Shown here: one piece after another, positions 44,533-47,900 of the stretch
How positions within the stretch are numbered: the first letter of the stretch is position 1
Layout of the letters: every line of letters begins with the position of its first letter
DNA from: Escherichia coli
Lineage (GTDB): Bacteria > Pseudomonadota > Gammaproteobacteria > Enterobacterales > Enterobacteriaceae
NCBI RefSeq assembly: GCF_016026235.1
Contig: NZ_CP065613.1
Length of the DNA: 64,000 nt
Reading direction: 5' to 3' (one strand)
Notes under the pieces: generated by a model
The model's database searches: none
The model's input: only the letters and a program-made list of their open reading frames with translations
What the model was told of the DNA's origin: nothing
Made by a program: the position numbers and the translations under genes

Positions 44533-47151
44533 TCATTGTTGAGCCAAAGCCTGATCCGATGGTTGTGCCGTTTCGCTCCGCTCCGGGCAGCGCGGAATAA
44601 ACGATACAACCCAGGAAACCAGAGAAGTCAGCACACGGAATATGCCCTTCACCGAAGAAGGCGCAAACTCCGCCAGATGGCGGTAGCCACGGAAGCCGAG
44701 CTTCAGAATATCCAGCAGACTTTCCAGCGGCTTATCTTCCGGGTAGCTGTCCTGCCAGAGCGCCCATGTATCCGCACGGGCAAACGTACACTGCACAAAA
44801 TCGATATGTTGCTGGGTGGTGAGCGGCATTAATTTCAGCCCAACTTCATTACCCATCACGCGCGCCACCTGGGTCGGGAAGACGTATTCCTGCTGACCGC
44901 GTTTAAGCAACAGATTCACTTTCTGCCCTTCCAGAATCTGCGCCTGACCGTTGATCTTGATCCCCAAACCACCGTCGGAGAAATCCTGAACGGTACACGA
45001 GAAGAGGTGACCATCTTCGCGGGCAATTGCCGCGGGCATCGTCATCTCCACGCGGTGCGATCGGCGTACCTGTTTGCTTTCTACCGATACCGCAACTGCG
45101 CCGCCAAGAACAATCAGGTTGTAGAACACCCACACCATACTGACGACCACGGTGAGCATCTCGGTTGGCGGGCCATAGAAGTAGCGCCAGATGCCGACCG
45201 CAACACCCACCAGGTTGAGCAGAACAAGGAAGATGTAGGGCCGCGAGATCACCCAGTCGACGTACTCTTCTTCCACCAGTCCACCTTTGGCGGTGACGTT
45301 AAATTTGCCTTTGTGCGGGTTAATCAGCGCCACCAGCGTCGGTGGTGCGATATACCACGCCAGCACCGTTTCGTAGATTTCACTCCAGAAAGAGTGGCGA
45401 TATTTGCCCTGGATCTTCGAGTTGGTCAGGCTGGCATGGATCATATGCGGCAGCACGAACAGGGCGATCATCAACGCTGGCGCATAGATGATGTAGGCAT
45501 GAAGCAGCAGGAACGCCAGCGGCGCAGTCAGGAAGATCAGTCGTGGAATGCCCGACAAGAAGTGGAACATGGCGTTGACGTAGCACAGCCGCTGAGCAAA
45601 CTTCAGTCCTTTACCGGTGAGCGGGTTATCGAGACGGAAGATTTGCACCATCCCGCGCGCCCAGCGAATACGCTGACCGATATGCGCCGACAGACTTTCG
45701 GTCGCCAGCCCCGCCGCCTGCGGAATACGCATATACGCGGAGGTATAGCCACGACGGTGCAAACGCAGAGAAGTATGCGCATCTTCAGTCACAGTTTCGA
45801 CAGCAATGCCGCCAATTTCATCCAGCGGCTTACGGCGAATCACCGCACAGGAACCGCAGAAGAAAGTGGCGTCCCACATATCGTTGCCATCCTGCACCAG
45901 ACCATAGAACAGCGTGCCTTCGTTCGGTGTTTTACGAAAACGCCCCAGGTTGCGTTCAAACGGGTCCGGCGAGAAGAAGTGGTGTGGAGTCTGCATCATC
46001 GCCAGCTGTTTCTCTTTCAGGAACCAGCCCATGGTCATTTGCAGGAACGATCGCGTTGGTACGTGGTCGCAGTCGAAAATCGACACGAACTCGCCTTTGG
46101 CATATTTCAGCGCATTGTTGATGTTGCCCGCTTTCGCATGTTCATGAGTGGTACGGGCGATATATTTCACCCCCACGTTTTGCGCAAACTGGCGAAACTC
46201 TTCCCTACCGCCGTCATCGAGGATCCAGATGTTCAGCTTGTCTTTCGGCCAGTCGATACCCAGCGAGGCGTAAATAGTATTTTTCACCACGTTGAGATCT
46301 TCGTTGTAAGTCGGGACAAAGATATCCACCGACGGCCACAGCGACATATCTTTCGGCAATGGCACCGGCTGACGATTCAGCGGCCATACTACCTGGAAGT
46401 AGCCGAGCACCAGCACAATCCACGCGTACGTTTCAGCGAAGAGCAGAATAAGCCCGCACACCAGGCTGACCGGATCGTCCCAGTTCAGCGTAGAGGTGTA
46501 ACGCCACCAGATATAACGGCAAGAAACGGTCAGCGACAGCACAATCAACATTAGCGCCGAGAAGCGCCCCGGCATCCGCCGTACGATCAGCGCTACACCC
46601 CACAGCAGCATCAGGAAGATAAACTGCGCCAGCGGGTTAAACGGTTGAGTAACGCAGATTAACGCCAGAATCAGCGAGAAGGTGACGATGATACCGAGGA
46701 TCAACCGCCGCGCCCCGGCACTCAAATGACCGAGCTCTTTTTTCTCATCAAGATGCTGTGTTTTATGGCTAACGCGCTCAGGCAGCTCGTTCATCCATTG
46801 ATGGTAACGTCCACGAATATTCTGCAGACCTGAAAATGCCCGCCTGCGCGGTTTCGGCGTTTCTTTGCGCGATGTACCGATCAGTAACCAGCATGTTTGA
46901 ATGAGATAACGGACCGGGTCCAGCGGACGCGGACGCGAGGCGTTGATATGCGGATACAGGTTTTTATGTTCTGCGCGAATACGCTGCCAGCGCGGGTGCT
47001 CCAGCGGAATAAAAATCCAGGCCAGGATCATCCAGAAACAGCCGAGCGTCGCGCTGAAAGCCGACGCACCGTGACGACGATAATCGCGATAACGCCCGAT
47101 AAGCCGCGCGTTGACCGGCGGGATAAGCAACCACCGGGTCAGGATACTCAT
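44533..47151 (-). CDS. bcsA: cellulose synthase catalytic subunit (GT2 with PilZ domain)
   Basis: 872-aa ORF from ATG 47151 (MSILTRWLL...); start overlaps bcsQ stop (ATGA). Confidence 0.9.
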   Translation of the reverse strand: MSILTRWLLIPPVNARLIGRYRDYRRHGASAFSATLGCFWMILAWIFIPLEHPRWQRIRAEHKNLYPHINASRPRPLDPVRYLIQTCWLLIGTSRKETPKPRRRAFSGLQNIRGRYHQWMNELPERVSHKTQHLDEKKELGHLSAGARRLILGIIVTFSLILALICVTQPFNPLAQFIFLMLLWGVALIVRRMPGRFSALMLIVLSLTVSCRYIWWRYTSTLNWDDPVSLVCGLILLFAETYAWIVLVLGYFQVVWPLNRQPVPLPKDMSLWPSVDIFVPTYNEDLNVVKNTIYASLGIDWPKDKLNIWILDDGGREEFRQFAQNVGVKYIARTTHEHAKAGNINNALKYAKGEFVSIFDCDHVPTRSFLQMTMGWFLKEKQLAMMQTPHHFFSPDPFERNLGRFRKTPNEGTLFYGLVQDGNDMWDATFFCGSCAVIRRKPLDEIGGIAVETVTEDAHTSLRLHRRGYTSAYMRIPQAAGLATESLSAHIGQRIRWARGMVQIFRLDNPLTGKGLKFAQRLCYVNAMFHFLSGIPRLIFLTAPLAFLLLHAYIIYAPALMIALFVLPHMIHASLTNSKIQGKYRHSFWSEIYETVLAWYIAPPTLVALINPHKGKFNVTAKGGLVEEEYVDWVISRPYIFLVLLNLVGVAVGIWRYFYGPPTEMLTVVVSMVWVFYNLIVLGGAVAVSVESKQVRRSHRVEMTMPAAIAREDGHLFSCTVQDFSDGGLGIKINGQAQILEGQKVNLLLKRGQQEYVFPTQVARVMGNEVGLKLMPLTTQQHIDFVQCTFARADTWALWQDSYPEDKPLESLLDILKLGFRGYRHLAEFAPSSVKGIFRVLTSLVSWVVSFIPRCPERSETAQPSDQALAQQ

Positions 47152-47900
47152 GATGCACTCCCGACTGGCGTTTTCAGCCCGGAGTAGTTCAACAGGCACC
47201 AGTTCGCCAGCGTCAGTATCTCTTCAGCCGCCAGCGCATCACTGCGATATTCACCTACTGGTTGCTTAGCCGCCAGGCATTCAGCCATCGCTTCATCACG
47301 ATGAATGAGCATCGGCAGTAATCGGCGCTGGCTTTGCAACCAAAGCTGGTAAATATCGTCCTGAACCTGACTGCCAATACGGAAGTTATTAATCAAAATA
47401 TGTGCGCCATCCGGCAGCGCTTGCTGATGCAGTCGGATATGGCAGTTGGCATCCACATTGACGATTGCCAGCGAGTGATCGCACAAACTCAGCAGCTGGT
47501 GGGTTATCTGCGAGGCATCACGCGGTAAGTCGATTAAAATCCACTGGTAACGCCCGCTGGCTTTTAGTTGCTGTAAGCCGGAGCAAATATCGCTCAGCCG
47601 GGTTTGCCAGTGCTGTGGATTTTCTTGTTCTTCAATGGATAACTGACCAAAAGGCAGCAAATCGAGCTGCGAGGTGTAGCGCAACCCAGCGTCACGCCAG
47701 TCCTGGCCATCCAGCATCGCTCTGGCCCAGCCCTGACGGTGGGTAAAATCAACATTAAATGACAGGCGCAACAAGTTGTCCGGGCAGGCATCGACCACCA
47801 GGACATTTTCTCCCAACATTTGTAATGACCAGGCTAATGCGGCGGTGATGGTTGTTGTCCCCACGCCTCCCCGCACCCCCTGCAATCCCAGTACGGCCAT
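47148..47900 (-). CDS. bcsQ: cellulose biosynthesis protein BcsQ (ParA/MinD-like ATPase), intact
   Basis: uninterrupted 250-aa ORF with P-loop-like GVRGGVGTTT near N-terminus. Confidence 0.85.
   Translation of the reverse strand: MAVLGLQGVRGGVGTTTITAALAWSLQMLGENVLVVDACPDNLLRLSFNVDFTHRQGWARAMLDGQDWRDAGLRYTSQLDLLPFGQLSIEEQENPQHWQTRLSDICSGLQQLKASGRYQWILIDLPRDASQITHQLLSLCDHSLAIVNVDANCHIRLHQQALPDGAHILINNFRIGSQVQDDIYQLWLQSQRRLLPMLIHRDEAMAECLAAKQPVGEYRSDALAAEEILTLANWCLLNYSGLKTPVGSAS

Follow-up and report, generated by a model that had tools for sequence, protein, structure and literature searches.

BcsQ is a MinD/ParA-like ATPase that, together with BcsR, is needed for the expression, assembly and polar placement of BcsAB. 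Assembly of the Bcs system depends on BcsQ as an essential component, and the G14S substitution inactivates the protein (PMC5727187). In K-12, bcsQ is defective due to 17T>A, which converts TTG to TAG, and cellulose production was restored upon repair of the gene, as Serra et al. 2013 is cited in PMC5944007. The repaired strain AR3110 has a Leu codon (TTG) at position 6, and E. coli BcsQ has also been crystallised within BcsRQ and BcsRQ-BcsE complexes (PDB 6YBU chain A; also 6YAR, 6YB3 and 9FNN). BcsG, the phosphoethanolamine (pEtN) transferase, consists of a five-helix membrane module and a catalytic domain with the nucleophile Ser278 (PMC11379886). Here we compare with these systems the bcs locus of a 64-kb stretch of E. 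coli DNA (the window), whose bcsQ is intact and whose bcsG is interrupted by an amber codon (Table 1).

Table 1 Features of the bcs locus in the window, with the basis of each assignment
Feature	Coordinates	Strand	Basis
pdeK (yhjK), c-di-GMP phosphodiesterase gene adjoining bcsC, intact	35545..37533	-	K-12 alignment
bcsC, 1157 aa, intact	37615..41088	-	K-12 alignment
bcsZ, 368 aa, intact	41070..42176	-	K-12 alignment
bcsB, 779 aa, intact	42183..44522	-	K-12 alignment
bcsA (872 aa; catalytic subunit of cellulose synthase), intact; differs from K-12 by A93T, R855C	44533..47151	-	K-12 alignment
ATGA overlap of bcsQ TGA (47150-47148) and bcsA ATG (47151-47149)	47148..47151	-	sequence
bcsQ CDS, 250 codons + TGA, intact wild-type allele	47148..47900	-	ORF listing, K-12 alignment, Pfam, PDB match
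bcsQ codon 6, TTG (Leu); TAG in K-12	47883..47885	-	sequence, alignment, PMC5944007
bcsR (yhjR), 62 aa; nt sequence as in K-12 (100%)	47912..48100	-	K-12 alignment; Pfam CBP_BcsR
bcsE, 523 aa, intact	48373..49944	+	ORF listing, K-12 alignment
bcsF, 63 aa, intact	49941..50132	+	ORF listing, K-12 alignment
bcsG pseudogene, split by amber; otherwise colinear with K-12 bcsG (559 codons)	50129..51808	+	ORFs, K-12 alignment, Pfam
CCTAG, mutated CCTGG Dcm site ending in the bcsG codon 247 amber	50865..50869	+	sequence

The bcsQ locus of the window holds one ORF of 250 aa with an ATG start and without internal stops or frameshifts, and its 5' end reads ATG GCC GTA CTG GGA TTG CAG. An earlier note on this DNA had described bcsQ as a full read-through ORF at 47148-47900 that overlaps bcsA by ATGA and lacks the early premature stop by which K-12 lost cellulose production. 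All of this held: the coordinates match exactly, retranslation of the interval gives neither a stop codon nor a frameshift, the overlap is seen at 47148-47151 with the bcsA start placed by colinear alignment to K-12 bcsA, and alignment of the gene start with K-12 shows TAG replaced by TTG at codon 6, the position named in PMC5944007. The gene is the same, and of the same length, as K-12 bcsQ (b3534) and its repaired form in AR3110. Base by base, it differs from the MG1655 pseudogene at two of 753 nt (751 identical), namely A to T at position 17, which is the codon 6 change, and G to A at position 514, so that the only amino acid changes relative to the K-12 frame are *6L and D172N; K-12 thus combines TAG with Asp172, whereas the window allele combines TTG with Asn172.

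The product matches the Pfam family CBP_BcsQ (PF06564) with E=1.2e-114 and 382.1 bits (cut-off 21.3), and the profile is covered end to end (positions 1-234 of 234). Residues 8-17 (GVRGGVGTTT) form the N-terminal glycine-rich nucleotide-binding loop, which is the same in the PDB sequence, and Gly14 is present. As D172N is the lone amino acid difference from the K-12 frame besides the stop, it could in principle cripple a BcsQ encoded by an otherwise intact ORF. We regard this as extremely improbable and effectively refuted, since Asn172 is the residue of the crystallised protein (6YBU, 9FNN and others), occurs in many natural alleles (seven loci named), and belongs to a protein found in exactly this form on at least 1000 contigs, where the sources name it BcsQ. 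The crystallised E. coli BcsQ shares 249 of 250 residues with the window protein as well as the bcsR-bcsQ-bcsA gene context; the sole difference, near the C-terminus, is residue 249, which is Ala in the window and in K-12 and Lys in the PDB protein. No feature speaking against function was found in the window bcsQ sequence. The allele is very probably the ordinary functional wild-type bcsQ of a non-K-12, chu-positive E. coli, and we infer that BcsQ would be made and active in the window strain.

A stop/start overlap of the ATGA type is an arrangement typical of translational coupling. Ribosomes would be expected to pass the TTG at codon 6 and to reach the TGA overlapping the bcsA ATG, and with codon 6 read through, the nonsense block that silences cellulose in K-12 is absent, together with the polarity that likely accompanies it.

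Intact bcsQ is the normal state in E. coli, and laboratory K-12 is the exception. A 61-mer bearing the TTG codon was found exactly in 3,551 of 5,426 complete E. coli genomes and its TAG counterpart in 349, and all 60 of the TAG carriers among the matches listed (349 in total) were K-12 laboratory derivatives. The full window bcsQ nucleotide sequence recurs at 100% identity in at least seven complete E. coli genomes. Truncated bcsQ has been reported in ST10, ST167, ST617 and ST744, in a table that gives no truncation positions (PMC10881479). The earlier description of bcsQ as intact, unlike the K-12 laboratory allele, is correct as to the codon (TTG versus TAG) and does not stand as a notable property of the strain, given the 3,551 and 349 genomes. 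The intact gene says only that the window is not K-12 and would be expected in almost any other E. coli; taken alone, it has little importance.

The genes bcsR-bcsQ-bcsA-bcsB-bcsZ-bcsC, divergent from bcsEFG, are colinear with K-12 without gaps, and 11 nt separate the bcsR stop from the bcsQ ATG downstream of it. All bcs genes except bcsG are full length, as are pdeK and pdeH; in fact every gene of the window apart from bcsG is intact, and no IS element was found in the window. The region is ~98.9% identical to that of K-12, from which the window strain differs by its chu genes and an extra 4-kb insertion. Exact matches to the window exist among E. coli assemblies, one being GCA_900449985.1 (NCTC) over 8.7 kb. 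A Shigella source, suggested by the pseudogene and by a low best identity of 98.8%, was rejected on account of these matches, the intact genes and the lack of IS elements. Apart from the bcsG W247 amber, the bcs cluster carries no lesion.

The bcsG amber had also been reported in the earlier note and is confirmed as a change of codon 247 from TGG to TAG at 50867-50869 (G740A of the gene, at 50868). It divides the gene into a 246-aa N-terminal ORF, which contains the membrane module and the linker, and a downstream ORF starting from M256, which contains the catalytic domain including Ser278 and has neither a membrane anchor nor an export signal. The Pfam CBP_BcsG profile is correspondingly split over the two ORFs (1-205 and 216-516). 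Since the amber parts the membrane module from the catalytic domain and leaves no single joined polypeptide, the window bcsG is predicted not to encode a functional BcsG phosphoethanolamine transferase; what remains should be a 246-aa membrane fragment of BcsG that lacks the periplasmic pEtN-transferase domain. RefSeq flags an equivalent allele as an "internal stop" pseudogene. A single-base change is the kind that a sequencing or assembly error could yield, in which case the strain would make normal pEtN-cellulose, but we give this explanation almost no weight because three public assemblies that are independent of each other (GCA_001907535.1, GCA_001907565.1 and GCA_900449985.1) carry the identical TAG haplotype, and the same truncated BcsG product is found on thousands of contigs.

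Cellulose synthesis also requires CsgD, DgcC and RpoS, and csgD, dgcC and rpoS are located outside the 64-kb window. Given that these outside regulators are intact, the most likely phenotype would be a reduced amount of cellulose without the phosphoethanolamine modification, and the prediction of the earlier note, unmodified cellulose rather than none, appears plausible. The published phenotypes of bcsG mutants bear on this prediction in both directions. A cellulosic polymer free of pEtN was still obtained from UTI89 delta-bcsG (PMC6685106), and cellulose is still measurable in Salmonella D23580, whose BcsG ends at the same residue, 247; the Salmonella bcsG SNP lowered calcofluor binding when moved into strain 14028 (PMC6611641). 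[quoted passage not shown] 2018 is cited in PMC6611641. The cluster could accordingly be silent in spite of the intact bcsQ, with the bcsG truncation or defects in outside regulators abolishing cellulose and leaving the strain negative like K-12 by another route. BL21, H10407 and many other natural E. coli are cellulose-negative on plates with apparently complete bcs genes (PMC5944007), and loss of bcs function is frequent in E. coli, where it has expanded clonally (PMC10881479). We regard a silent cluster as an appreciable possibility on the doubtful side, because, in addition to the polymer from UTI89 delta-bcsG and the cellulose of D23580, the stop at 247 spares the five transmembrane helices and the linker, the portion to which stabilisation of BcsA has been attributed (PMC6611641, PMC11379886). 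With bcsQ intact and bcsG interrupted, the window strain is a natural candidate for making unmodified cellulose and could be compared with engineered bcsG mutants.

The broken bcsG is the more interesting feature of the locus, and the sequence surrounding its stop could outweigh the intact bcsQ in importance. K-12, FDAARGOS_943 and Salmonella have CCTGG where the window has CCTAG, a transition such as deamination of the inner C at CCWGG would produce (C to T, seen as G to A on the opposite strand). A search with a 31-mer, all of whose 28-nt seeds span the SNP, found the window bcsG haplotype with the amber in none of the 5,426 complete E. coli genomes. A codon-247 TAG is present on a K-12-like bcsG haplotype, 22 nt away from that of the window, in 54 complete RefSeq genomes, in which bcsG is annotated as a pseudogene. 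The codon-247 stop appears to have arisen independently on at least four haplotypes, and its TAG form falls into at least three haplotype groups. Recombination of a single shared amber tract is an unlikely source, as the groups differ in the SNPs located -13, -7 and +9 nt relative to codon 247. Dcm sites at which an amber could be generated fall at bcsG W84, Q94, W129, W209, W247 and Q542, with 17 more in the other bcs genes. Truncated products at codons in Dcm context were found on a median of 479 contigs versus 57.5 for non-Dcm Trp control codons (p=0.004), where contigs do not equal independent events. The TGA allele of codon 247, seen at one locus, is not accounted for by Dcm, and the BcsA W55* and BcsQ Q178* (ST95) codons are not Dcm sites in the K-12 sequence; thus not every recurrent nonsense mutation in the bcs genes can be put down to Dcm. 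The dcm gene is located outside the window.

These observations point to the Dcm site at bcsG codon 247 as a putative mutational hotspot. Combining both aspects, we tentatively propose that the window represents a natural strain with synthesis on and modification off (intact bcsRQABZC, and BcsG cut after its BcsA-stabilising module), and that the W247 amber arises repeatedly in E. coli and Salmonella via the CCTGG Dcm site, a combined reading that we hold to be slightly less probable than its negation. If it is true, a methylation-driven mutational hotspot in the bcs genes would account for part of what has looked like convergent selection to lose pEtN-cellulose, the ST313 lineage II allele being one such case. 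If Dcm-site nonsense alleles dominate the natural bcs pseudogenes, selection studies in E. coli and Salmonella would need to be corrected for the mutation rate at CCWGG.

Two natural systems resemble the window most closely in having lost the pEtN-transferase gene. Among E. coli lineages, truncated bcsG has been reported in ~100% of ST453 and >50% of ST58, along with BcsG W247* in one ST95 strain, and these bcs-truncated lineages retain an intact bcsQ as the window does (PMC10881479). In Salmonella Typhimurium ST313 lineage II (D23580), a G>A nonsense mutation (TAG or TGA) affects the same Trp247, and the supplements of PMC6611641 do not include its sequence context. We reached the Salmonella bcsG locus by protein search; a degenerate DNA pattern scan of genome contigs for this locus retrieved 48 loci and none from Salmonella, because Salmonella BcsG has Val250 instead of Ile. 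The Trp247 codon of Salmonella is found in the context TCC TGG (CCTGG), the same as the ancestral E. coli context. Although Salmonella is another genus, with a BcsG that is 85% identical, and D23580 also carries csgD promoter mutations, D23580 and the window share the same truncated BcsG product, with the membrane module kept and the catalytic domain lost, and in both bcsQ and the remaining bcs genes are complete.

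In the window, bcsQ is an uninterrupted reading frame. The earlier note had claimed a full 250-aa ORF coupled to bcsA through an ATGA overlap; the ORF listing matched its coordinates exactly, and 47151-47148 on the minus strand reads ATGA, with the bcsQ stop overlapping the bcsA start. Neither the ORF listing nor our direct reading of 47148-47900 revealed an internal stop or frameshift, and retranslation gave a clean frame that begins ATG GCC GTA CTG GGA TTG CAG (codon 6, TTG), 11 nt after the end of the upstream bcsR. The product matches the Pfam CBP_BcsQ profile over its full length (382 bits) and retains Gly14, at which the G14S substitution inactivates BcsQ (PMC5727187).

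In K-12 MG1655, bcsQ (b3534) is annotated as a pseudogene, and aligning it base by base with the window gene (753 nt each) showed two differences. First, position 17 is T in the window and A in K-12, so that codon 6 is TTG (Leu) in the former and TAG in the latter. This is the published K-12 lesion, 'TTG/TAG (17 T>A)' (PMC5944007), and the early K-12 stop that the earlier note had described is indeed missing here. Second, position 514 changes Asp172 of K-12 to Asn, which is harmless: the BcsQ sequences of PDB 6YBU, 9FNN and related entries, identical to the window protein at 249/250 residues, also have Asn172. As PMC5944007 also describes, Serra et al. regained cellulose production in W3110 by repairing the codon-6 lesion; that paper is undecided between BcsQ loss itself and polarity on downstream genes as the cause.

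Given the allele counts in complete genomes, an intact bcsQ is not unusual and amounts to 'not K-12'. Of 5,426 complete genomes of E. coli in RefSeq, 5,285 have the gene, and in at least seven complete E. coli genomes it is 100% nucleotide-identical to bcsQ of the window. The TTG 61-mer centred on the codon-6 SNP occurs exactly in 3,551 of the 5,426 and the K-12 TAG 61-mer in 349; among the matches listed, all 60 TAG carriers are K-12 laboratory derivatives, including MG1655, C600, DH5alpha, DH1, J53, NCM3722 and HMS174. The exact 250-aa protein was found in at least 1000 contigs of a large protein collection. Truncation of bcsQ is not limited to laboratory strains: it affects roughly half of the ST10 genomes sampled and ~90-100% of ST167, ST617, ST744, ST1060, ST300 and ST655 (PMC10881479). 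An additional natural route to a null allele is IS1A insertion, seen in the clinical isolate 720632 (NZ_CP025842.1), where the bcsQ match is broken in two by an annotated IS1 transposase. As the wild-type form of a gene that has been studied in detail, the intact bcsQ is already known and of little interest; more can be learned from the amber in neighbouring bcsG.

The window is colinear with K-12 3,655,250-3,710,658 at ~98-99% identity. Among complete RefSeq genomes there was no close match (best, 98.8% over 25 kb), and two draft assemblies, GCA_001907565.1 and the NCTC assembly GCA_900449985.1 (contig UGFA01000002.1), are 100% identical to the window over 11.4 kb and 8.7 kb, respectively. 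The chu genes, missing from K-12, typically occur outside phylogroups A and B1 and mark a chu-positive (non-A, non-B1) background. The ORFs of the 4-kb segment (401 aa and 680 aa, plus strand; 176 aa, minus strand) have no assigned function, and the N-termini of the first two resemble signal peptides or those of lipoproteins. The ldr/rdl copy number ranges from 1 to 4 across the related loci L012-L019.

Features of the window and their state relative to K-12
Feature	Coordinates	Strand	Description	K-12
chuX, chuY, chuU, chuV	254-3179		heme uptake; adjoin yhiD	slp-dctR side in their place
rcdB (yhjC)	20390-21285		4-nt deletion near 3' end; frame shifted in last ~10 codons	reference
4-kb segment	28296-32357		3 ORFs in kdgK/yhjJ interval	missing
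bcsQ	47148-47900	minus	250 codons, ATG start, TGA stop	pseudogene
bcsG amber	50867-50869	plus	codon 247 TAG	TGG
ldr/rdl type I toxin-antitoxin repeats	51811-53183		3 tandem units downstream of bcsG	1 (ldrD)

Of the K-12 genes compared along the window (39 in all), only bcsG is clearly broken. The genes bcsC, bcsZ, bcsB, bcsA, bcsR, bcsE and bcsF are full length with few substitutions relative to K-12, and pdeK and pdeH, which lie nearby and encode c-di-GMP phosphodiesterases, are not shortened either. The amber that the earlier note had reported in bcsG is present at codon 247. As a result, the Pfam CBP_BcsG profile falls partly on a 246-aa ORF and partly on a second one, downstream, that starts at Met256. 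The amber is not an error, since the same sequence occurs in three independent assemblies.

BcsG, the phosphoethanolamine (pEtN) transferase of cellulose, consists of five N-terminal transmembrane helices, a ~45-residue linker and a periplasmic catalytic domain with the nucleophile Ser278, and three copies dock via their membrane parts on the BcsA N-terminal domain (PMC11379886). A stop at 247 would keep the membrane module and linker and remove Ser278 with the catalytic fold, and the downstream product, if translated, would lack both a membrane anchor and an export signal. Evidence on the effect of bcsG loss is mixed. The UTI89 bcsG deletion yields a pEtN-free cellulosic polymer (PMC6685106), while a complete non-polar deletion in E. 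coli 1094 is calcofluor-negative (PMC5727187) and a full deletion in Salmonella turns cellulose off (PMC6611641). Salmonella ST313 D23580, with a bcsG stop 'at amino acid 247', makes measurable cellulose, which the authors credit to BcsA stabilisation by the remaining N-terminal half; the same SNP in strain 14028 abolished colony patterning and lowered calcofluor binding (PMC6611641). The observation of the earlier note stands for both genes, and its interpretation is supported in part: unmodified cellulose rather than none is the best guess, to be taken as probably a smaller amount of cellulose, without the modification. This outcome also depends on csgD, dgcC and rpoS, all outside the window.

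The codon 247 stop recurs widely. The exact 246-aa truncated BcsG was found in 3,382 blocks of a public collection (67 with contigs >1 Mb), and TAG on a K-12-like haplotype is carried by 54 complete genomes in RefSeq, isolated from a variety of hosts, with bcsG flagged 'internal stop'. Allele comparison placed the window with L005, L009 and L019 in a first TAG group, 3 nt from the intact FDAARGOS_943 allele, one of the three being G740A (the amber). A second group (L012, L013, L018, L020 and near relatives) lies 22 nt from the first, a third TAG allele (L007) ~30 nt from all others, and L006 has TGA. A single recombination tract carrying the stop into all groups is unlikely, because the flanking SNPs at -13, -7 and +9 nt differ between them. 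Instead, the Trp247 stop appears to have had separate origins on at least four haplotypes (three groups with TAG, one with TGA). The initial loci were collected via the C-terminal part of BcsG, a route that favours disruptions shortly before Met256. Another W247 stop is reported in an ST95 strain (PMC10881479). Two W247-stop genomes have a disrupted or shortened bcsA (L016, OU349845.1, 305 + 547 aa; L017, CATKMT010000001.1, 832 aa), suggesting that bcsG loss may precede more decay of the cluster.

The ancestral codons 246-247, TCC TGG, contain the Dcm site CCTGG, and window 50865-50869 reads CCTAG. If the methylated inner cytosine of the opposite strand were deaminated, CCTGG would become CCTAG, exactly the observed change; the dcm gene lies outside the window. 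In the lacI system (Coulondre and Miller), Dcm sites are reportedly hotspots of base substitutions and ambers. K-12 bcsG has nine Dcm sites; at six of them (W84, Q94, W129, W209, W247 and Q542) deamination would create an amber. When the truncated proteins predicted on the same protein background were looked up by exact match, stops in Dcm context were found in 479 (W84), 214 (Q94), 829 (W129), 101 (W209) and at least 1000 (W247) contigs (median 479), against 89 (W116), 48 (W135), 128 (W148), 67 (W162), 18 (W261) and 3 (W374) for non-Dcm Trp controls (median 57.5). The Dcm-context count was the larger in 29 of the 30 pairwise comparisons (p = 0.004, exact one-sided Mann-Whitney test) and ~8-fold higher overall, in contigs that mix clonal expansion and independent events. 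Dcm does not account for the TGA allele at codon 247, and several bcs nonsense mutations from the literature fall elsewhere than at Dcm sites. In bcsQ (K-12 locus L001, 15234-15986; window 47148-47900), two Dcm sites could give an amber by deamination, W24 and Q66; the K-12 codon-6 stop is a T>A transversion, not of this type.

In the literature searched, no paper connected bcsG with Dcm, and we regard a possible Dcm hotspot common to this strain and Salmonella ST313 as a modestly novel lead. Codon 246 is mostly TCA in 48 loci of other genera, hence no Dcm site, while Salmonella enterica has TCC TGG at codons 246-247, as in E. coli, and Salmonella ST313 lineage II carries its bcsG stop at residue 247, as does the window.
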